DNA from: Candidatus Harrisonbacteria bacterium RIFCSPHIGHO2_02_FULL_40_20
GTDB taxonomy: Bacteria > Patescibacteriota > Minisyncoccia > UBA6257 > WO2-44-18
NCBI GenBank assembly: GCA_001818675.1
Contig: MHJF01000006.1
Location: 3,157 to 67,156 of the forward strand
Direction: 5' to 3'
Length of the DNA stretch: 64,000 bases
Numbering within the stretch: position 1 is the stretch's first letter; every line of letters begins with the position of its first letter. This document shows, piece by piece, positions 460 to 63,462 of the stretch. Made by a program: the position numbers and the translations under genes. Below the pieces are notes generated by a model, which saw only the letters and a list, made by a program, of their open reading frames with translations, was not told the DNA's origin and did not search any database.

Positions 460-1173
460 TTATTCTAATAAAGTTTCTTTTATATCTTCTAAATTGAGGT
501 GTTTAATCCATTCTTTTATATTTTTTCCATATTCGGTAGTTCCACCAAAATAGTTTAATAAAAATTCTCTTTGGGTAACGGATTGAAAATTTTTCTTTCC
601 TAAATAATCTATATGGCTACTCCAACGGTAATTTTCTAAAAATTGTATTGCTTTGTTATAATCTTTGATTTTTCTTTCTCTCCATTCCGGCGCTATTAAA
701 TCAAGGGGATTTAAATGAATATAATAGGGGATATGTATGAAATGAGCCTCTTGGTTGATGTGCACTAGTTTATATCTACCCTGAAATAAGGCACCGGATC
801 TTTGATATTTTTCATTGAAATATTTTGCATAACCCATATTAATTTTCTTCATAAACTGAGAAATTCCCTGATCATTCAGCGGTCTTAATAAAAGGTGATA
901 ATGATTATTCATTAAACAGAAAGCCAGAATTTCTACAAGTAATTTTCTTGGCTTTCTTTTCGAATCAATATATGGACGTCCGATGTCCATATATTGATTT
1001 TTCTTGTTTTGGCGGAAAAAGTAATTAACATTATTAGCGGACTCTAAATTATTAAATTCAAATAAGTCGTGAATAAATCGGAATCGATCAGAATCATCAA
1101 GAAACAGTTTTCTTTTATCCACGCCCCTATTAAGAACATGGTAAATATTACCAGCCGTACTCTTTCTTTTCAT
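460..1173 (-). CDS. IS200/IS605-family Y1 (HuH) transposase, REP-associated tyrosine transposase (RAYT)-like
   Basis: HuH motif NHYHLLL, conserved YHVLNRG N-terminus, C-terminal GRYK tyrosine region (COG1943-like); flanked by inverted REP hairpins. Confidence 0.7.
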   Translation of the reverse strand: MKRKSTAGNIYHVLNRGVDKRKLFLDDSDRFRFIHDLFEFNNLESANNVNYFFRQNKKNQYMDIGRPYIDSKRKPRKLLVEILAFCLMNNHYHLLLRPLNDQGISQFMKKINMGYAKYFNEKYQRSGALFQGRYKLVHINQEAHFIHIPYYIHLNPLDLIAPEWRERKIKDYNKAIQFLENYRWSSHIDYLGKKNFQSVTQREFLLNYFGGTTEYGKNIKEWIKHLNLEDIKETLLE

Positions 1174-3443: not shown

Positions 3444-3445
3444 GT

Positions 3446-3563
3446 CCCGTTAGAGACGGGTCGCCAAAGGCGACCGTAACTCGGCCGTTTTAATAAAAAT
3501 CGACTTTTTATGATTAAAATTAAACAATATTGCAGAAATCATAGATTGGTTGTCTCTAGCGGG
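3446..3563 (+). mobile_element. 118-bp MITE-like element, copy 1 (terminal inverted repeats cccgttagagac / gtctctagcggg)
   Basis: Near-identical inverted copy at 31433-31550; ends 3 nt before an ATG. Confidence 0.6.
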
Positions 3564-3566
3564 ATA

Positions 3567-4346
3567 ATGTTTTTACTGGTTTTATTACCGGTTTTTTGGG
3601 TTCATCCCACGAATGCCCAATCCGAAGATTTAAAGACCGCTAAAGAAGCGGTTCAGCAAAGCTATGATAAATTAGTGGAAGTTCAGGGCGAGCAGACGTT
3701 AACTAAAGAAGAACAAGCTAAACAAGAGTTAGAAGCTTTAATTGCCGCTTTAAAAGAAGTTGTGCAATTTACCATTACTGAAACTGAAAGTTTAATTCAG
3801 CATTTATCGGCTATTAAGGGATTATCTGTAGAAACCGCCAAATTACAATTAGATTATTTAAAAGAATTAGACGAATTTTTAATTTATCAGCAAGAATTTT
3901 TGATTAAAATAACTCCTCAAGAAGAGGTTGGAGCCTTGACCTTAGTTGAGATTAAACAATTAGCTTTAGATTTTAAAAATTGGAGAGAAACGGTTTATGA
4001 TCCTGAAATTAAAAAGATAGTTAGTTTTATTATGGTATTTAAGGGTTCCGAGCTATTGAGTATAGCGACTAGCCGTTTTAATAAAATTGCTTTGGATTTG
4101 CGGCTATTCCAAAATTCAAAGTTAATTAAAGTAGATCTTTTGATGCCAGTATTACAGCAAGCCGGCGATTATTTGAAAGAGGCATCAAAATTAAATCAAG
4201 TAGCAATAAAATCTTTATTAGCTACTTCCACTGATCCAGTAGATACTAATAAATTAGTGGAGCGGGTGGTTGGGCTTATTAAATCTTCTTACGGCAAATT
4301 TTTAGAGATGAGTTCTTTGGTGAAGAAGATGCTTAATATCCAGTAA
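3567..4346 (+). CDS. secreted coiled-coil protein (start moved from 3510 to 3567)
   Basis: The ORF-track N-terminus lies inside the repeat element; Met at 3567 starts a signal peptide MFLLVLLPVFWVHPTNAQS. Confidence 0.5.
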   Translation: MFLLVLLPVFWVHPTNAQSEDLKTAKEAVQQSYDKLVEVQGEQTLTKEEQAKQELEALIAALKEVVQFTITETESLIQHLSAIKGLSVETAKLQLDYLKELDEFLIYQQEFLIKITPQEEVGALTLVEIKQLALDFKNWRETVYDPEIKKIVSFIMVFKGSELLSIATSRFNKIALDLRLFQNSKLIKVDLLMPVLQQAGDYLKEASKLNQVAIKSLLATSTDPVDTNKLVERVVGLIKSSYGKFLEMSSLVKKMLNIQ

Positions 4347-6478: not shown

Positions 6479-6804
6479 TGCGGCAAAAACCTTTCTGTTT
6501 TAATATTAATTTATTGGATTATCCTGTAGAACTGCTAGTCTGTGTGTTGTGCATTAGGCGCCCTAAGGGGCTGCATAGACGCGCACTCACTTAACACCCC
6601 GCACTAAAAATTGGATTGCCCTTTGGAGTCGCCAGGACGCGCACTCACTTAACACAATTTGTATAAGAGGTCACCACTGGCGATTCCATAGGACAATTCA
6701 ATTGATCCAATTTTAGTGACGGGGCAGGCAATTTTGTATTAGGAGGTCACCACATGCAGCCCCTTAGGTTGCTTAGGTGTTGTTGCTGGCAGTTCCATAG
6801 GGCA

Positions 6805-7767
6805 ATGCAAGATTCTCTTTCTATGTTTCAATCCGAGGTTAATTTAAAGCACCTCAGCAATTATAAAATTGGCGGCGGAGCAGATTATTTTTTTAGCGCC
6901 AAAGATATTCAGAGACTAATCGGGGCTGTAGCCGTAGCTGAAAAAAACAACCTGCCAATTTTTATTTTAGGCGGAGGCACCAATCTGCTTATTAATGATG
7001 GCGGCTTTAAAGGGTTGGTATTAAAACCCGATATTAAAAAATTAGAAATTGAAAAATCGGATAAAGAGCAGGTATTAGTCAGGGTGGGCTCTGGCATTTT
7101 GGTTACGGAATTTTTGAATTTTTTGATTAGCAATTCTTTATCCGGAATGGAGTGGGCTGGAGGTTTGCCGGGTACTGTTGGTGGCGCAATTCGAGGTAAT
7201 GCCGGAGCTTTTACTGGCGAAACTAAGGATGCGGTAGCGGAGGTAGTGAGTTTAGATATTTCCAAGAAGCAGCCTAAAATAATTCGTCGCGATAATAAAG
7301 AATGTAAATTTGGATACCGAAATAGCATATTTAAAATTAATGATGGAAGAGAAATAATTACGGAAGCTGTTTTTTATTTTCAGAGAGGAGATAAACAAGC
7401 GATTAAGAAATTGGTGGAAGAAAAAATCAATTATCGCCGTTCTCGGCATCCTATGGAATATCCGAATATCGGCAGTATTTTTAAAAATGTTGATTTAAGG
7501 TTGATTCCTAAAAATAAACAAAAAAACTTTGCTAATATAGTTAAAAAGGATCCCTTTCCGGTTATTCCTACTGCTTATTTAATTTCTGAAGCTGGATTAA
7601 GGGGTGTGAGTTATGGCGGAGCAATGATTTCTCCTAAGCACCCTAATTTTATAGTGAATGCTTTGGACGCGAATGCCAAAGATGTAAAAACGCTTATCAA
7701 TTTAGTGAAGGCTTCAGTTAAAAGAAAATTTGGAGTAAGTTTAGAAGAGGAAATTATTTATGTGTAG
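6805..7767 (+). CDS. murB: UDP-N-acetylenolpyruvoylglucosamine reductase
   Basis: FAD-binding N-terminus NLKHLSNYKIGGGADYF and MurB C-terminal domain; start placed at MQDSLS (ORF-track start 6754 lies inside a repeated segment). Confidence 0.8.
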   Translation: MQDSLSMFQSEVNLKHLSNYKIGGGADYFFSAKDIQRLIGAVAVAEKNNLPIFILGGGTNLLINDGGFKGLVLKPDIKKLEIEKSDKEQVLVRVGSGILVTEFLNFLISNSLSGMEWAGGLPGTVGGAIRGNAGAFTGETKDAVAEVVSLDISKKQPKIIRRDNKECKFGYRNSIFKINDGREIITEAVFYFQRGDKQAIKKLVEEKINYRRSRHPMEYPNIGSIFKNVDLRLIPKNKQKNFANIVKKDPFPVIPTAYLISEAGLRGVSYGGAMISPKHPNFIVNALDANAKDVKTLINLVKASVKRKFGVSLEEEIIYV

Positions 7768-14996: not shown

Positions 14997-15080
14997 TAGC
15001 GACTAGCGACTAGTGGTTAGCCACTAGTTTACAGGCGTTATTAGTATTCTACTCGTGGCTAGTGGCTAGTGGCTAGTGGC
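14997..15080. repeat. intergenic heptamer repeats (gcgacta x2, palindrome actagtggttagccactagt, tggctag x3.5) in the divergent promoter region
   Basis: Read directly; lies between the GT4 start and the sugar-transferase promoter. Confidence 0.75.
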
Positions 15081-15082
15081 TT

Positions 15083-15099: not shown

Positions 15100-15687
15100 A
15101 TGCGTAGATTGTTTGATATCACTGGCGCTTTGGTGGGGTTAGCAATAACTTTTCCTTTTTGGCCTCTGATAGTTTTAGCGATTAAAATAGATTCACGGGG
15201 CCCGGCTCTTGTTCGTTTAGCGCGCGTGAGTAGGGGGAAATTGATTTATGTGTATAAATTTCGTTCTATGGTTGCCTGCGCTCATCTTTTGAAGAATAAG
15301 TTTTTTAATCTTAATGAGCGCCAAGACGGGCCATTTTTTAAGATTAAACAGGATCCGAGATTAACTCGCGTGGGTAAAATCATTAGAAAATTTCGTTTAG
15401 ATGAGCTTCCGCAATTCTTTAATGTTTTAAAAGGAGATTTGGCGCTAGTTGGCCCTCGGCCTCATGAGCCTGAAGAAGTCATTCATTATCCGGATGAATA
15501 CAAACATTTAATTTTGGCAAAAGCTGGCCTTACCGGTTTGTCACAGGTGAATGGCGCTTCTAGTTTGCCATTTTTATCCGAACTTAATTTAGACCATTAT
15601 TATGTTAAAAATCGAACTTTGGGTATGGATATTCAGATATTAAAGAAGACGATCGGGGTATTTTTTACCGATTCTACAGCGGTTTGA
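15100..15687 (+). CDS. undecaprenyl-phosphate sugar phosphotransferase (bacterial sugar transferase, WbaP/PglC C-terminal domain type)
   Basis: DELPQFFNVLKGDLALVGPRP motif; N-terminal TM helix; start taken at MRRLFDITG. Confidence 0.8.
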   Translation: MRRLFDITGALVGLAITFPFWPLIVLAIKIDSRGPALVRLARVSRGKLIYVYKFRSMVACAHLLKNKFFNLNERQDGPFFKIKQDPRLTRVGKIIRKFRLDELPQFFNVLKGDLALVGPRPHEPEEVIHYPDEYKHLILAKAGLTGLSQVNGASSLPFLSELNLDHYYVKNRTLGMDIQILKKTIGVFFTDSTAV

Positions 15688-31401: not shown

Positions 31402-31432
31402 AAAATAAAAGTTGTATAATTAGTACATGAAT

Positions 31433-31550
31433 CCCGTTAGAGACAACCAATCCATGATTTCTGAAATATTATTTGATTTTAGATATAAAAAGTCGATTGC
31501 CGTTAAAACGGTTGAGTTACGGTCGCCTCTGGAGACCTGTCTCTAACGGG
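31433..31550 (-). mobile_element. 118-bp MITE-like element, copy 2 (inverted orientation relative to copy 1)
   Basis: Its reverse complement aligns with 3446-3563 over the full length; ends immediately before the pilC ATG. Confidence 0.6.
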
Positions 31551-32759
31551 ATGAAATTTCGATACAGCGCGAGGACAAAATTAGGAGAGCTTCAAGTCGG
31601 TTTTGTAGAGGCGGCTAGCCGAGAAGCAGCTTTTGGCCTTTTGAGCGGTCACGATCTTTTTATTTTGAAATTGGAAGCAGAGCTGGAGAAGCGGCCGTTC
31701 GCCGCATTGTTGGGTATTTTCCGCCGCGTGAGCAGAAAAGATTTAATGATTTTTACTCGGCAGTTCGCGACTTTATTGCAAGCCGAAGTAGTATTGGGGG
31801 ATTCTTTAAAAATCCTTCATACCCAAACTTCCAATAAAACTTTACAATCAGTTATTTTAGAAGTTTCCTCGGATATTGATGCTGGACTTTCTTTATCTCA
31901 AGCCCTGGAAAGGCATGGCGATATTTTTTCAGAATTCTATATTAATTTAATCCGTTCCGCGGAGGTCACTGGGCGTATGGATGAGTCTATGAGTTTTTTA
32001 GCCGACTTTTTAGAAAAGGATATGAATCTGGTGGCAAAAATTCGGAACGCTTTAATTTACCCGGCTTTTATTTTAGGTTTATTTTTTGTGGTGGTAATTA
32101 TTTTGGTAGTGGCGGTTTTCCCCCAATTGCGGCCGATTTTTGCAGATGCCCAAGTGGATTTGCCGTTAGTTACGAAGCTGCTTTTGGATGGCGGCGCTTT
32201 GCTTCTGGACTGGTGGTGGGCGATGGTTGTTATCTTTGGCGTTTGTATTTGGGTGATTATAGATTATTTTCGCACTAAAGAGGGAAGGGCTGTTTGGAAT
32301 CAGCTGATTATTGGTTTGCCTGTACTAGGCCAGGTTTTTAGAAAAATGTATATAGCGAGATTTGCTGAAGCGGCTAGAATTTTATTAAAAGGCGGTATTC
32401 CTATTGCTCAAGCCATAGAAATTAGCGGACATACTTTAGCCAATGTGGTTTATCGGGAAGTTTTGCAAGAAGCAGCGGAAGGAATCCGCAGAGGGGAATC
32501 GTTATCCCAGATTTTATCTAAATATTCTTCAGCTTTCCCGCCGTTAGTGAGTCAAATGGTTGCGGTTGGAGAAAGCACTGGGCGTTTAGAAGAAATGTTG
32601 GGGCGAATAGCGACTTTTTATATTCGAGAAGTGGATACGGTGGTAGATAATTTAGTAGAATTAATTCAGCCAGTGGTAATGGTGATAGTGGGTGTTTTGG
32701 TCGGATTGCTTTTTGCTTCAATTTTGATCCCGATTTATCAATTGGCGCAAGGGTTCTAA
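31551..32759 (+). CDS. pilC: type IV pilus inner-membrane platform protein PilC (GspF family)
   Basis: Two GspF repeats; start moved to MKFRYSARTK because the ORF-track N-terminus lies inside the repeat element. Confidence 0.85.
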   Translation: MKFRYSARTKLGELQVGFVEAASREAAFGLLSGHDLFILKLEAELEKRPFAALLGIFRRVSRKDLMIFTRQFATLLQAEVVLGDSLKILHTQTSNKTLQSVILEVSSDIDAGLSLSQALERHGDIFSEFYINLIRSAEVTGRMDESMSFLADFLEKDMNLVAKIRNALIYPAFILGLFFVVVIILVVAVFPQLRPIFADAQVDLPLVTKLLLDGGALLLDWWWAMVVIFGVCIWVIIDYFRTKEGRAVWNQLIIGLPVLGQVFRKMYIARFAEAARILLKGGIPIAQAIEISGHTLANVVYREVLQEAAEGIRRGESLSQILSKYSSAFPPLVSQMVAVGESTGRLEEMLGRIATFYIREVDTVVDNLVELIQPVVMVIVGVLVGLLFASILIPIYQLAQGF

Positions 32760-33034
32760 AATTATGATAAAATAATTAAAACGGTCGAGAAAGAACCCAT
32801 CTTAATAATAATTCCTAAGCGCGTTGAGAGAATAAATAGAATAGATCGAGGAATGACGACGAAACTGTGCTTTTAGCACGTTGAGGAGGAATGACGCTGA
32901 AATATTCTATTTAAGCCGCAACCCTTCGGGATACTGCCAATTTATATTAATAACTGCGTTGTTCGTCGAAGATGTAGACTATCTACAATCTTCTCCTCAC
33001 GCCTTGTTCTAAATAAAATTGGCAAGTATCGCGC

Positions 33035-33547
33035 TTGGAAGCTATTATTAAGATGGGTTCCAAAATAAAACTTATGATAAGAATTACTAATTCAAGATTT
33101 TATAATAAAAAAGGTTTTACGTTAATTGAAATGCTGATTGTCATTTCTATTATTGGCATTTTGGCGTCTATTGTTTTAGTTGGCTTGGGAGCTTTTCGTT
33201 CCCGGGGCCGCGATACTAGAAGAATTGCTGATTTAAGGGAGGCGCAGGGAGCTTTGGAGCTTTACTATACTAAGTTTCAGCAATATCCAAGCAGCGGTTT
33301 AAATTCTTGGGGTACTATGAGCCAGGCTATTATCAACGGAGGGGTTGGAGTGAATACTGTTTCTAATGATCCATTATCGCCAGCCAAAACTTATGTTTAT
33401 GGCGCTAGCTCCGATCAGCAGCAGTATGTTTTAATGGCTACTTTGGAAGAAGCTTCGCATCCAGGCTTGAAGGATGATGTAGATGGCACTGTTTTTGGAG
33501 TTAATTGCGGTGATGCTCCACAAGGAAATTATTGCGTAAGACTCTAA
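33035..33547 (+). CDS. pilA: type IV major pilin (prepilin)
   Basis: Class III signal KKGFTLIEMLIVISIIGILA; the true start is probably an internal Met (33053 or 33074). Confidence 0.85.
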   Translation: MEAIIKMGSKIKLMIRITNSRFYNKKGFTLIEMLIVISIIGILASIVLVGLGAFRSRGRDTRRIADLREAQGALELYYTKFQQYPSSGLNSWGTMSQAIINGGVGVNTVSNDPLSPAKTYVYGASSDQQQYVLMATLEEASHPGLKDDVDGTVFGVNCGDAPQGNYCVRL

Positions 33548-38376: not shown

Positions 38377-38460
38377 GGGCAGGTGGCAGAGCGGTCAATT
38401 GCATCTCGCTGTAGACGAGACGCCTTTCAGGCTACGGGGGTTCGAATCCCTCCCTGCCCA
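38377..38460 (+). tRNA. tRNA-Tyr (anticodon GTA)
   Basis: Long variable arm, anticodon loop CTGTAGA, acceptor GGGCAGG/CCTGCCC. Confidence 0.75.
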
Positions 38461-38505
38461 TAAAAATTCCCGAAGCAGTATTTATGCTGCTTCGGGAATT
38501 TTTAT
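38461..38505. terminator. perfect palindromic bidirectional terminator aaaaattcccgaagcag...ctgcttcgggaattttt
   Basis: Read directly. Confidence 0.6.
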
Positions 38506-38557
38506 GGATGGATTCGAACCTAGTAACTCTTGATGATTTTTAGTATAATCTACTGAT

Positions 38558-49374: not shown

Positions 49375-49476
49375 AACTCTTCACCCTGAGTGAATTTACC
49401 CCCGACATAACGTCGGGGTTTTTATATACCTAGAGTTATGCACATCTTTAAGGCTGATTTATGGTAAATTTATTAT

Positions 49477-49620
49477 ATGCCCGGTAGCGACAACTGCGAT
49501 AAGGGCAATTCGATGCGTCAATGAATTTAACTAAAACTATGTTTTTTCAAAGGTCATAATCAATAATAATGATTGCGAGACATTGTCTAAAGCAGCGCAA
49601 TCGCAATTGTAGCACCGGGT
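49477..49620 (+). mobile_element. 144-nt repeated element, copy A (closing inverted repeat cccggtagcgacaactgcgat / atcgcaattgtagcaccggg; contains a 15-codon mini-ORF MPGSDNCDKGNSMRQ)
   Basis: Near-identical copy at 61266-61410; ends exactly at the ATG of the 49621 gene. Confidence 0.55.
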
Positions 49621-52335
49621 ATGAGAAAAATTGTCACTTTAATAAGCGCGGGAGTGTTTCTTTTCTTTTCTGGAGCTTTAGCGCAGGTTTCCGCTCCTAC
49701 TAATTTTCCATCGCCTATAGATGAGCCGGAATTAGCCGCCGTGGAACCCATATCCGCGATTGAGGCCACCAGGCCGATTGTTTATCTTCAAGATTTTTCT
49801 CTTTCCGGATCGGAATTTAAACCGGGAGGAAGCATAGGTATTAGATTTACCGCGGTTAGCGGCAATGAAGTTGCTTTAAGCGACGTTCAATATTCCGTTG
49901 CCCTTTTAAAAAATGTGTTATTGTTTGACGAAAAAATTTTTGAGGAAAAACTTTTAATCTATCCAGAAGATAAAATCAGAAAGAGTATCCAATATAAATT
50001 GCCGGAAAAGCTGGCGGATGGAGAATATTTGATCGGCGTTTATTTAGTGAATGCGAAAGGAATGACTTATGGTTTTGCTGACCCTTTGCCTATTAAGATT
50101 TCCGGAGGCGGCGCGTTTGTGGAGCTAAGTAATCCCCAGATTATTGTTCGCGGCGCAACCTATCCCGCGGCTGCTGGAGTAACAGTTAAATCTAATGACA
50201 CGATAAGAGGCGAAGCAGCTTTCCATAATCTGTCTAATGAAACTATTTTAGTAATGCCACGCGTCAAAATTTTAAAACGAGGATTGAGCGATCAAATTCT
50301 TCAATCTTATGATGAACCGGCATTTTCTTTAGACGGCGATGACAGCGATATTTTATCTTTTGATTTTAGATATAAATATTCGGATCCGGAAGCGTTGGTT
50401 GCTGATATAGTTCTACTTGATAAAGAGGGCAATACAATTTCTAATCATGCTTTATTTAGATGGGTAACCGAGGGTATCGGAGGAGAAGTGGTGGCTATTC
50501 AAGCTCTGCCGCCTGACCCCACTTTTAAAACTTATAAAGCAGTTGTTTATTATTATGGGCCTGCTGATGCCCAAACTAAAGCCGGATCGGCGGAATTAGT
50601 AGTTACTTTAATTGATCAAGGCAAAGTTATCGGGCAAACAACAGAATCCATTAATCTTAATAGATTAGATAGTAGAACGGTTACGGTGATCGCCAATGCT
50701 TACGCGGAATCGCCCGAGATAAAAGCAGAAATAGTAAAAAGCGGGAAAGTTTTGGATAACTATTCTATTACTCAACCGCCGATTAAAGCCGTTTTTCCAG
50801 CCACTGCGGCATTATGGATTGTTGTTGCTAGCTTAGCAGCTGGCTTAATCGTGTTTTTAGTAAAAAAAATAGGTATGAGAAAATCACAAGTTATTTTACC
50901 TCTTTTGTTTGTCGCTGGATTTTTATTTTTAAACGTGGACATTGCGAAGGCCTCTATTGTTGAAGTTCGTAATGATTACGGTTTTGGTTATTCTTTGCAA
51001 GACCCAACGCATAATCAGACTGTGATAGCTGGCGATACCATCAGGTTTTCTGGCCAAATTTATCAAGAAGGATGTGGGAATGTTACTAATACTTCAGATA
51101 AAGATAAAATTAAATTTTATATTGACAATACGGAATTATCCGGTTATTTATCCCTAACAGAAGTTTTTTGTGGAGCGGGAAAATATTGTTTAAGTTTTAA
51201 TTATTCTTTTTCCGTACCGGCGGATTTAGCCGCGGGACCGCACAAAGCCGGATTTTTCTTTGCTGGTTATCATCCTTGGATTTGCGAAGCCGATCCTAAT
51301 AATCCTGTTTGCCAGAGGCCGTTAGAAGAGCAAGGATATTATTATTTAGATGTTTACGAGCATATTTTAGTGAGTAATCCGGGAACAGAGCAGCCAACTA
51401 ATCTTTCCAGTTTTTGTCCGGTTCCCGGAACTCGAGCGACGATTGCTTGGTTCCCGGTTAGCGGCGCGAAATTTTACGCTTTGAGAATTAATAATTTAGC
51501 TGATGATTGGACAGGGACTTGTTCATCTGCGGCCGGCGATTTTTGCCAGGATATTCAAGCTCCAGCCACTTCTTTTAGTTTTATTTCTCGCCTCAACAAT
51601 GCTTATCAATGGTGGGTTCATGCTTGTAATGATATTTCTTGCGGCAATGCGGCTTTAGGCCAAAATTTTATTTGTCGGGATCGTTTGCCCCAATGTTCAG
51701 ATTCTTTAGATAACGATGGCGACGGAAGAATAGATTATCCCAATGATCCGGGCTGTTCTTCGGCTGATGACGATGATGAAACTAATATCGTAAACCCGCC
51801 TCAATGTTCCGATGGCTTGGATAATGATGGCGATGAGCTTTCTGATTATCCCAATGATCCGGGCTGTTCTTCGGCTGATGACGATGATGAGCTTAATGAT
51901 GGAGGTAGCGGCGGAGGCGGCAATGGCGGTGGAAGTGGAGGAGGTAGCGGCGGAGGTGGAGAACAATTGCCCCAATGTTCAGATTCTTTAGATAACGATG
52001 GCGACGGTTTGCCGGATTTTCCAAATGACCCTAGCTGTTTTTCGGCAACCGACAATAATGAAAATGTTTCTTTCATCATTGAATTCAATTCTAGCCCAGC
52101 GTCTATTGGAATTGGAGGCGTCTCTAATCTTATTTGGTCTACTGTTGGTTTAAATTCTTGCTCTATTAATCAGGGCATTGGATCGGTTTTGGTTAATGGT
52201 TCACGCCCGGTGAGCCCCGCCCAGACTACAACTTATACCCTCAATTGTTTGCAGGGGCCAAATTCTAATAATCCGATTTCTCGACAAGCCACTGTGCAGG
52301 TTAGAAGTTCAAGTTTAGAAGAGGTTATCCCTTAG
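49621..52335 (+). CDS. large surface protein with three TSP3-like Ca-binding repeats (CSDSLDNDGDG...DYPNDPGCSSADDDDE), a Gly/Ser linker and an internal TM hairpin
   Basis: Signal peptide; internal DNA repeats of about 120 bp at 51688-52030. Confidence 0.55.
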   Translation: MRKIVTLISAGVFLFFSGALAQVSAPTNFPSPIDEPELAAVEPISAIEATRPIVYLQDFSLSGSEFKPGGSIGIRFTAVSGNEVALSDVQYSVALLKNVLLFDEKIFEEKLLIYPEDKIRKSIQYKLPEKLADGEYLIGVYLVNAKGMTYGFADPLPIKISGGGAFVELSNPQIIVRGATYPAAAGVTVKSNDTIRGEAAFHNLSNETILVMPRVKILKRGLSDQILQSYDEPAFSLDGDDSDILSFDFRYKYSDPEALVADIVLLDKEGNTISNHALFRWVTEGIGGEVVAIQALPPDPTFKTYKAVVYYYGPADAQTKAGSAELVVTLIDQGKVIGQTTESINLNRLDSRTVTVIANAYAESPEIKAEIVKSGKVLDNYSITQPPIKAVFPATAALWIVVASLAAGLIVFLVKKIGMRKSQVILPLLFVAGFLFLNVDIAKASIVEVRNDYGFGYSLQDPTHNQTVIAGDTIRFSGQIYQEGCGNVTNTSDKDKIKFYIDNTELSGYLSLTEVFCGAGKYCLSFNYSFSVPADLAAGPHKAGFFFAGYHPWICEADPNNPVCQRPLEEQGYYYLDVYEHILVSNPGTEQPTNLSSFCPVPGTRATIAWFPVSGAKFYALRINNLADDWTGTCSSAAGDFCQDIQAPATSFSFISRLNNAYQWWVHACNDISCGNAALGQNFICRDRLPQCSDSLDNDGDGRIDYPNDPGCSSADDDDETNIVNPPQCSDGLDNDGDELSDYPNDPGCSSADDDDELNDGGSGGGGNGGGSGGGSGGGGEQLPQCSDSLDNDGDGLPDFPNDPSCFSATDNNENVSFIIEFNSSPASIGIGGVSNLIWSTVGLNSCSINQGIGSVLVNGSRPVSPAQTTTYTLNCLQGPNSNNPISRQATVQVRSSSLEEVIP

Positions 52336-60589: not shown

Positions 60590-61265
60590 TAGAAAATTTT
60601 TGGTACGGGGCTTTGGGAGCCCAGTACCAGAGCAAAGCTCGGTACTGGACAAGCACGTAGCCTGGGTTCCCGCCCCGATCGCAGTCGGGGCGAGGCTCGC
60701 CCAAAATAAATTTGGGCGGCAATTCCCAGCACTCCGAAGAAAGAATGTTTAAAAATATTATTGTTAGATTTTTAAGATGGATTGAGATTCAGAGATCTCT
60801 AATTATGGTTTTAACAGCCTTTTTATTTGTTTGGCAGTTAATCCATCTTTATTGATTGACTGCTAATGTGGTGGCTTTGCGTTTATTGGATAGAAGTTTT
60901 TTAGAATTATCTGACATACTTAATATTTTAATTGCTTTAGTGGATTACACAGAAATTCCGGCTTTAATCACTGCCACCCTGCTTTATTTCGGCCAGTTTT
61001 ATACTCAATTTAATTGGAAGAGCCTTTGGTTTTTGATTTTAATTAATAGCCAATGGCCGCACCTTTTATGGATAACTGATGAATTTGTAGTGAATCGTTT
61101 TTCAGAAGCTGGCCATGTAATTTTTCTGGTTTAGCTAGCCTGGATAGCAATTTTTATTGATTATCTTGAACTGCCTGTATTTTTTGACACCCTTAAAGAT
61201 TCTTTCAAAATTGGGCTCAATAAAATACGTAGTTTATGATAAAATTATATTCATAGAGAGTTTTT

Positions 61266-63462
<2,197 letters not shown>

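Follow-up and report, generated by a model that had tools for sequence, protein, structure and literature searches.

A 64 kb stretch of the genome of Candidatus Harrisonbacteria bacterium RIFCSPHIGHO2_02_FULL_40_20 (contig MHJF01000006.1, positions 3,157 to 67,156; this whole stretch is hereafter the window), a groundwater member of the Parcubacteria within the Candidate Phyla Radiation (CPR), carries two copies of a repeat of ~140 bp, each ending at the start codon of a different gene, one encoding a 904-aa secreted or surface protein and the other LigA. We consider it probable that these repeats are copies of a non-autonomous DNA transposon, a miniature inverted-repeat transposable element (MITE), belonging to a superfamily for which a parent enzyme, a mode of targeting and a role for the RNA hairpin can be proposed. 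Elements of the subfamily represented by the two repeats, F1, have imperfect terminal inverted repeats of ~21 bp beginning CCCGGTAG. The two copies, A and B, with their flanking repeats and upstream signals, are laid out as follows.

49480-49619, plus strand: F1 copy A, spanning 140 nt between the outer ends of its inverted repeats; arms CCCGGTAGCGACAACTGCGAT (left, 49480-49500) and ATCGCAATTGTAGCACCGGG (right, 49600-49619).
49476-49479, plus strand: left TATG flanking repeat of copy A, holding the ATG of a mini open reading frame (mini-ORF); read by analogy with the empty site for copy B.
49620-49623, plus strand: right TATG flanking repeat of copy A; the ATG at 49621-49623 is the start codon of the 904-aa secreted/surface protein.
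49465-49470, plus strand: -10-like hexamer TAAATT of a putative promoter predicted from the sequence, 6 nt before the first ATG of copy A.
49400-49418: intrinsic terminator, upstream of the TAAATT hexamer.
61269-61409, plus strand: F1 copy B, 141 nt; arms at 61269-61289 (left) and 61390-61409 (right).
61265-61268, plus strand: left TATG flanking repeat of copy B; the relative L018 has a single TATG here.
61410-61413, plus strand: right TATG flanking repeat of copy B; the ATG at 61411 is the ligA start codon.
61237-61245, plus strand: extended -10 element TGATAAAAT of ligA, outside the repeat.

Both copies lie where an earlier note on this DNA had placed them (49477-49620 and 61266-61410), and with those coordinates they align along their full length; what changes is the limits of the element, whose natural ends are shifted to 49480-49619 and 61269-61409. 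The note was also right that each copy is flush with the ATG of an unrelated gene, at 49621 and 61411, and that no Shine-Dalgarno sequence precedes either ATG, although GGAGG is present at other genes of the window. Both ATGs are credible starts: the 904-aa ORF has a signal-peptide-like N-terminus, and in LigA the Pfam Nlig-Ia domain begins at residue 7. Patterns for the left arm (33 nt) and the right arm (24 nt) each match only two places in the 64 kb, and none in 100 shuffles. The sequence of copy B recurs in seven further assemblies of the species, and the filled site of copy A, its spacing unchanged, in two further assemblies that were fetched. In one public record (P0121, Candidatus Harrisonbacteria RIFCSPLOWO2_02_FULL) the 904-aa protein is given as 810 aa.

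The evidence for insertion comes from orthologous ligA loci without the element, a comparison that the earlier note had proposed and that yielded an empty site. L018, whose LigA is 85% identical, is collinear with the window upstream of ligA and has the same extended -10, yet it lacks the element and has a single TATG, with the junction ...tGTGATAAAATtagatccatagagcattt-TATG-gataaaaaa (longer flank catagagcattt-TATG-gataaaaaa). At the same point of ligA, the window and the sister species L017 (LigA 92% identical) have TATG, 141 or 148 nt, and TATG again. Comparison of the single TATG with TATG-element-TATG defines the natural ends of the element, CCCGG...CCGGG, and a 4-bp direct repeat; target-site duplication, which the note had raised as a check, is thus present as TATG on both sides of copies A and B. 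It also follows from the empty site that the first ATG of the mini-ORF and the ATG of the gene are the two halves of the target duplication. A more distant relative, L019 (72% identical), likewise has no element at ligA, where it reads TAAAAT-N7-ATG. A search for an empty site for copy A among orthologues of the 904-aa gene returned three relatives only, none of them usable.

Further F1 copies occur in other genomes, upstream of genes unrelated to these two: one encoding a CAP-domain protein in L001, another Parcubacteria metagenome-assembled genome, and an MreD-like gene in L024. They came from searches with an exact two-arm pattern, one through 185,579 species genomes and one through metagenomes. 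The former gave one true match (L001) and nine chance matches without extension past the anchors; the latter gave the new copy in L024, a re-sampling of copy B (L023) and one chance match. A scan of viral contigs with the left arm returned chance matches in coding DNA only.

F1 is one of at least three subfamilies distinguished by their inverted repeats (F1, CCCGGTAGCGAC; F2, CCCGTTAGAGAC; F3, CCCGTTAGAAGC) and found in Harrisonbacteria and related Parcubacteria. The sister subfamilies have in common the terminus CCCGKTAG and a 4-bp flanking repeat, and the terminal patterns are CCCGKTAG...CTAMCGGG and ...TAGCACCGGG. Two F2 copies in the window were first exposed by screening every ORF start of the window for a helix ending at the ATG; together with copies A and B, they bring the number of elements within 64 kb to four.

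31432-31551, plus strand: F2 copy 2a, 120 nt, with inverted repeats TCCCGTTAGAGACA / TGTCTCTAACGGGA.
31428-31431 and 31552-31555: TGAA flanks of copy 2a.
3445-3564, minus strand: F2 copy 2b, 120 nt, ending 2 nt before the ATG at 3567.

The F2 inverted repeat (TCCCGTTAGAGACAAC) agrees with the F1 left arm at 13 of 15 positions. The terminal A of copy 2a, at 31551, is also the A of the start codon of pilC (T2SSF domain), and the original ATG stands at 31427, 6 nt after a TATAAT (31415-31420). An empty relative (L037, 5540-5555) reads TATAAG-N8-ATGAAGTTT, which would fit a pre-insertion sequence TATAAT-N6-ATGAAATTT with TGAA duplicated at copy 2a. Copy 2b is the reverse complement of 2a, at ~86% identity, and has TAAG on one side and TAAT on the other; the longest-ORF start at 3510 (278 aa) falls inside it and appears to be a gene-calling error, the real start being probably 3567. 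A third F2 copy lies in L019 between gatA and the next gene, at a point where the species of the window has TAAatATG. The F3 element (TCCCGTTAGAAGC) lies in L037 between the stop codon of ruvA and the ATG of a Mur-ligase gene, where L041 has the overlap TAATG. Unanchored pattern and inverted-repeat searches, made after the start-anchored screen on the window and on ~156 kb of related contigs fetched via LigA and PBP2 homologues, brought to light the L019 and L037 elements and no further copies. Another element, unrelated to F1-F3, was seen in L035 (2469-2622, the same in L036): it is 154 nt long, has 23-nt inverted repeats (AGAAATATCCGAAATTATCTTCC...) and runs from the stop codon of a prepilin peptidase gene to 52 nt before the next gene, not flush with its start.

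Taken together, the elements have the properties of a MITE, and the suggestion in the earlier note of a MITE-like mobile element is borne out by the empty site, the unrelated target genes, the 4-bp flanking duplications and the sister subfamilies. They are 120-152 nt long and have no conserved coding capacity; they end in terminal inverted repeats (22 paired positions in F1, 13-15 bp perfect in F2 and F3); a target duplication is evident against the empty site (TATG in L018) and, for copy 2a, as TGAA on both sides, consistent with ATGAAG in L037; and copies occupy eight independent sites in at least five genomes, with filled and empty pairs at ligA, downstream of gatA, at ruvA/mur and at pilC.

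The elements are narrowly restricted in position. At all eight independent sites (four F1, three F2 and one F3), the duplicated 4-mer lies within -2 to +5 of the A of the start codon, a zone that makes up 5.5% of the window positions where an insertion would break no gene. Under a null more generous to chance, in which each 4-mer is taken as an obligatory target and only its tolerated occurrences are counted, those at a start number 34 of 98 for TATG, 14 of 100 for TGAA and 5 of 204 for TAAT, with a joint probability of ~1e-6. In L001, L024, copy 2a and probably copy A, a -10 box outside the element ends 6-9 nt before the first ATG or GTG, so that these are leaderless-type starts. Copy B and the F3 copy are not of this type, and such a promoter is therefore not required for insertion; the extended -10 of ligA has a close variant, tGTGATAAAAT, in both L017 and the empty-site relative L018. 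More widely in the window, a TAnnnT hexamer ends 5-9 nt ahead of the ATG in 17 of 65 genes, which lack a Shine-Dalgarno sequence; others have a clear GGAGG, and the organism seems to mix leaderless and Shine-Dalgarno-led initiation. Neither start codons nor leaderless genes are mentioned in one recent review of prokaryotic MITEs, and literature searches on leaderless genes in Patescibacteria, on MITEs in the CPR and on REPINs at start codons found no precedent. Two other readings were considered and dropped. The right arm is not an outward promoter: its matches to a -10 are poor, and promoter prediction shows no plus-strand promoter in copies A and B. Nor does the mini-ORF serve generally as a coupling upstream ORF, as only copy 2a and L024 have one ending near the AUG of the gene.

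The two ends of the element are mutually reverse complementary, as the earlier note had recognized. In F1 they form a closing helix of 22 pairs with one bulged A and one G.A mismatch, which in every copy takes in the A and U of the start codon. Across five F1 copies (A, B, L001, L024 and the orthologous ligA copy of L017), 98% of cells are paired, the arms are near-invariant and 19 of the 22 pairs are invariant; covariation in the helix does not rise above that of shuffled alignments, 102 of 500 of which reach the observed score. Invariant pairs without covariation above shuffles point to inverted repeats of common origin rather than to an evolving RNA structure. The fold is nevertheless a stable one, with an arm duplex of -30 to -37 kcal/mol and whole-element z-scores of -3.7 (copy A) and -4.8 (copy B), and the plus and minus strands fold about equally well. 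The interior is far less constant: most pairs of copies are 57-76% identical, the interior of L001 is unrelated and the 3' half of that of L017 has been replaced. Within the L017 element there is also a 31-nt perfect hairpin (234-264, CCCGGTATCACAAgaaTATTGTGATATCGGG), with arms similar to the inverted repeats of the element itself (CCCGGTAGCGACAA), as though a related solo hairpin had nested there. The conserved 15-codon mini-ORF of the earlier note holds between copies A and B; in the remaining three its length is 17, 31 and 45 codons, with changes of frame. Given the duplicated ATG and the conserved left arm, it is best regarded as a by-product.

Between the window and L017 the arms are identical at 45 of 47 positions, compared with 66% identity in the interior of the element and 59% at the fourfold-degenerate sites of ligA. 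The two arm changes (C-G to U.G, and A.C to G-C) keep or improve the pairing. It is possible that selection acts on the hairpin once it precedes an essential gene, that the arms are renewed by conversion, or that the same site was hit twice.

These observations establish that the elements are mobile, carry inverted repeats with conserved arms, are flanked by a short duplication and lie at start codons. Insertion of F1 duplicates the 4-bp target TATG, that is, the start codon and the T before it; the ATG at the left end opens a meaningless mini-ORF, and that at the right end stays the start codon of the gene. In F2 and F3 the duplicated target is TGAA-like, and the terminal A of the element rebuilds the ATG. 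Beyond this, a scheme can be proposed for how the elements insert and are tolerated. The parent could be a transposase of the IS1380/piggyBac type, with a DDD active site, a proposal based on the CCC termini and the AT-rich 4-bp duplications. Target choice may reflect the easily melted AT-rich region at the transcription or translation start of leaderless-type genes. On top of this, survivorship may act, such that in a compact genome with very short spacers only insertions that regenerate an ATG persist. The transcript would begin at the left arm or a few nucleotides before it, and the 5' end of the mRNA would consequently fold into the hairpin of -30 to -37 kcal/mol ending in AUG. Because ligA must be expressed, this hairpin must allow initiation; by analogy with other systems, expression might be kept because the hairpin loops the insert out and juxtaposes its flanks, or because RNase III cuts it. 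RNase III is retained in at least 90% of CPR genomes (PMC12641178), and Correia inverted repeats in Neisseria mRNA are cleaved by this enzyme (PMC10969869; PMC2649163).

The proposed parentage rests on the ends of the elements and is a lead, not a statement of membership. The termini are CCCGG...CCGGG or (T)CCCG...CGGG(A), and the duplications TATG, TGAA, TSAA and TAAK. PiggyBac elements have CCC termini and 4-bp TTAA duplications, with variants that include TATG and TCAA, and IS1380 serves as the prokaryotic outgroup of piggyBac (PMC10813416). Going further, one may picture a transposon lineage, possibly IS1380/piggyBac-like, that actively targets leaderless starts and is phenotypically silent there, the ATG being rebuilt by the 4-bp duplication (with the terminal A in F2 and F3) and the hairpin being looped out or removed, while host selection keeps the hairpin. 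We put this extension forward tentatively, giving it a minority chance of being right; if true, it would amount to an intron-like stealth strategy at the first codon, and would explain why the arms are conserved far above the neutral rate.

Several points weigh against the interpretation of the repeats as MITEs. Neither an autonomous element nor a DDE/DDD transposase with these inverted repeats was found in the ~220 kb of the window and the other loci. Copy number is low: apart from re-samplings of copy B, the exact two-arm scans yielded no true copies but L001 and L024. At four sites the flanking repeat is exact and at four others it agrees at three of four positions, and the F1 empty site is compatible with a duplication of 2, 3 or 4 bp. 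All four F1 sites have one orientation, which is not predicted for a plain DDE MITE (p = 0.125, not significant). Finally, L024 does not offer a clean filled site: in L044, from the same species, mreC and mreD overlap and the MreD N-terminus is different. Accordingly, we rejected L024 and L044 as a second F1 pair of filled and empty sites, since the difference extends over the entire upstream segment and the first 17 codons. As an observation in its own right, comparison of L024 (2574-4086) with L044 (5440-5660), which are one species (PBP2 99% identical), indicates that the segment upstream of mreD has been swapped, and not the element alone. The swapped segment of L024 holds two unrelated genes, a terminator, a perfect TTGACA-16-TATAAT promoter, the F1 element and the different first 17 codons of MreD.

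Among other explanations, the one that fares best is that the host selects the repeat as a 5'-terminal processing or stabilizing hairpin, mobility having merely spread the module. In this reading, the arms would be kept because a helix ending in AUG guides RNase III, Y or J so as to leave a leaderless or short-leader mRNA, or because it shields the 5' end. The near identity of the arms between orthologous copies (45 of 47, against 59% at neutral sites) would be expected of such a hairpin, as would the inclusion of the A and U of the start codon in every helix. Many genes of the window look leaderless, one of its genes encodes RNase Y, and CPR genomes keep both RNase III and RNase J. However, the genes concerned (ligA, pilC, and those for the surface protein, the CAP-domain protein and the Mur ligase) are unrelated in function, close relatives (L018, L019, L041 and L011) do without the element, F2 is found in both orientations, and covariation is lacking; the conservation of the arms could also come about by gene conversion or by repeated insertion at a hot spot. 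We therefore regard a host-selected hairpin as unlikely to be the primary explanation.

The only transposase gene in the window suggests a different means of transfer, in which the repeat is a hairpin of the REPIN or PATE kind, moved as single-stranded DNA by a Y1 (HUH) transposase.

460-1173, minus strand: Y1/IS200-like transposase gene, resembling the transposases associated with repetitive extragenic palindromic (REP) sequences (RAYTs); adjoins a tRNA gene.

Such an enzyme could insert the element 3' of a short target, in which case the apparent duplication would consist of the target and the end of the element. Three features are consistent with this: the element forms a single long, imperfect hairpin whose bulge and mismatch are conserved, all F1 copies have the same orientation relative to TATG, and the empty site is seamless. 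The Y1 gene, however, is flanked and interrupted by a different palindrome of its own, TATGGACATCSGATGTCCATA, found at 433-453, 971-991 and 1208-1228 and nowhere else in the window, the middle copy lying in frame within the gene; the gene and its palindromes look like a REP-RAYT unit. Because this palindrome is unrelated to the arms of the elements, which are not self-complementary, we do not assign the elements to the Y1 protein or to the REP/REPIN-RAYT class. Furthermore, the flanking 4-mers vary (TATG, TGAA, TAAK), unlike a fixed target matched by a guide, and F2 may face either way with respect to the start codon. Movement by the Y1 protein thus appears very improbable.

Even less can be said for a cis-regulatory leader RNA (a riboswitch, attenuator or leader peptide) common to ligA and the surface-protein gene, the second reading offered in the earlier note. 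The position between promoter and start, the stable fold and the mini-ORF in both copies of the window would agree with it. A search of the whole window against Rfam at the gathering threshold found tRNAs only, and copies A and B gave only noise at E-values up to 10. Added to this, the interior is unconserved, the mini-ORF ranges from 15 to 45 codons with changes of frame, what is conserved is sequence rather than covarying pairs, the orthologous ligA leaders of L018 and L019 lack the element, and the fold is about as good on the minus strand. With conserved core, covariation, peptide and gene class all wanting, the leader reading is largely refuted and its chances are slight.

An invertible promoter, in which a recombinase acting on sites in the repeats flips the interior as an on/off switch, is suggested by the inverted repeats around an AT-rich segment of ~100 bp just upstream of surface and pilus genes, among others, by the occurrence of F2 in both orientations at different loci and by a weak minus-strand promoter-like site within copy A, but it is hardly credible given one orientation per locus (copy B is oriented alike in the window and the seven further assemblies, and the spacing of copy A is unchanged in two), the single orientation of all F1 copies, a promoter that is external and conserved in the empty site, no invertase found in the window, and a gene, ligA, that is unlikely to be phase-variable. 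Integron attC sites were also rejected: the ends are CCCGG/CCGGG, with AAC...GTT 13-16 nt inside and off the RYYYAAC/GTTRRRY consensus, and the two copies lie 11.8 kb apart among housekeeping genes. Readings of the helix as a K-turn or an RNase Z-type structure were dropped on sequence grounds.

Several other repeats in the window were observed near gene starts or tRNAs. Heptamer repeats of the CTAGTGG type and their complement (AGCGACTAGTGG...CTAGTGGCTAGTGGCTAGTGGCT) occupy 15005-15081, between divergent glycosyltransferase and sugar-transferase genes and just upstream of a TATAAT-N7-ATG start at 15100. A long inverted repeat (32793-32823 / 33030-33060) has the start and first codons of a pilin-like gene (33053) in its 3' arm, and the 3' arm region of two others (6555-6576 / 6754-6775 and 6611-6635 / 6786-6810) holds the start and first codons of murB (6754); the three are 87%, 86% and 80% complementary. 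These arms imply that the 5' ends of both genes have been duplicated in inverted form ~200 nt upstream, and the repeats may be invertible segments or remnants of rearrangement. A hairpin with 24-nt arms, 96% complementary (CCATAAAAATTCCCGAAGCAGTAT/ATGCTGCTTCGGGAATTTTTATGG), lies at 38458-38507 and abuts the 3' end of the tRNA at 38377-38460.

As a class, MITEs are ordinary; the strict placement on start codons with regeneration of the ATG is unusual, and so are the presence of the elements in CPR genomes and the long-term conservation of their arms. MITEs have hardly been described in the CPR/Patescibacteria, whose genomes of ~1 Mb are thought to be poor in mobile DNA, and the finding of every copy on a start codon bespeaks an unusual choice of target or unusual survivorship. 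The elements offer a way to approach leaderless translation and the processing of 5' ends in organisms that do not grow in culture by themselves. They also cause annotation errors, as in the start call within copy 2b and the 904-aa protein recorded as 810 aa. Should the proposed parent enzyme exist, bacteria would possess a relative of piggyBac whose insertion preference is defined, which would be of value as a tool.

Among known systems, several resemble the elements in part. Rickettsia palindromic elements, like other intragenic MITEs, persist in compact genomes only at positions that leave the host gene working. The Rickettsia elements insert in frame within coding regions and are translated. 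The elements described here are likewise palindromic, non-autonomous and found in compact genomes; unlike the Rickettsia elements, they sit at the first codon, outside the protein. The intervening sequences of rRNA are 100-150 nt long, closed by a helix of their ends and tolerated because RNase III excises them from the RNA without re-ligation; they sit in 23S or 16S rRNA, and the likeness lies in an insert closed by a helix of its own ends. REP/REPIN-RAYT systems are similar in that hairpin-forming extragenic repeats are kept over long periods, and a RAYT-like Y1 gene with palindromes is present in the window; REPINs, however, are doublets of palindromic REPs, have no target duplication and are mostly found in 3' regions.

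Small mobile sequences are known from both intergenic and intragenic sites (PMC2229807). The Correia elements of Neisseria (CREE/NEMIS) are non-coding and 100-155 bp in length; they have inverted repeats of ~26 bp, duplicate a short AT target, frequently lie just upstream of genes and are co-transcribed with them, and their RNA hairpin is bound or cleaved by RNase III (PMC2649163; PMC10969869). In contrast to the elements of the window, Correia elements duplicate TA, number hundreds per genome, create promoters at their ends, bind the integration host factor (IHF) and have no tie to start codons, whereas our elements occur in few copies, duplicate 4 bp, have an external promoter and invariably lie on an ATG. 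IS1380 and piggyBac share with our elements the CCC termini and 4-bp AT-rich duplications, and the seamless empty sites are compatible with the precise excision of such elements; they differ in that no transposase gene was found here, the likeness being one of ends alone. The closest known relatives in kind are therefore the Correia elements with respect to size, hairpin, co-transcription and RNase III, and IS1380/piggyBac with respect to the ends.

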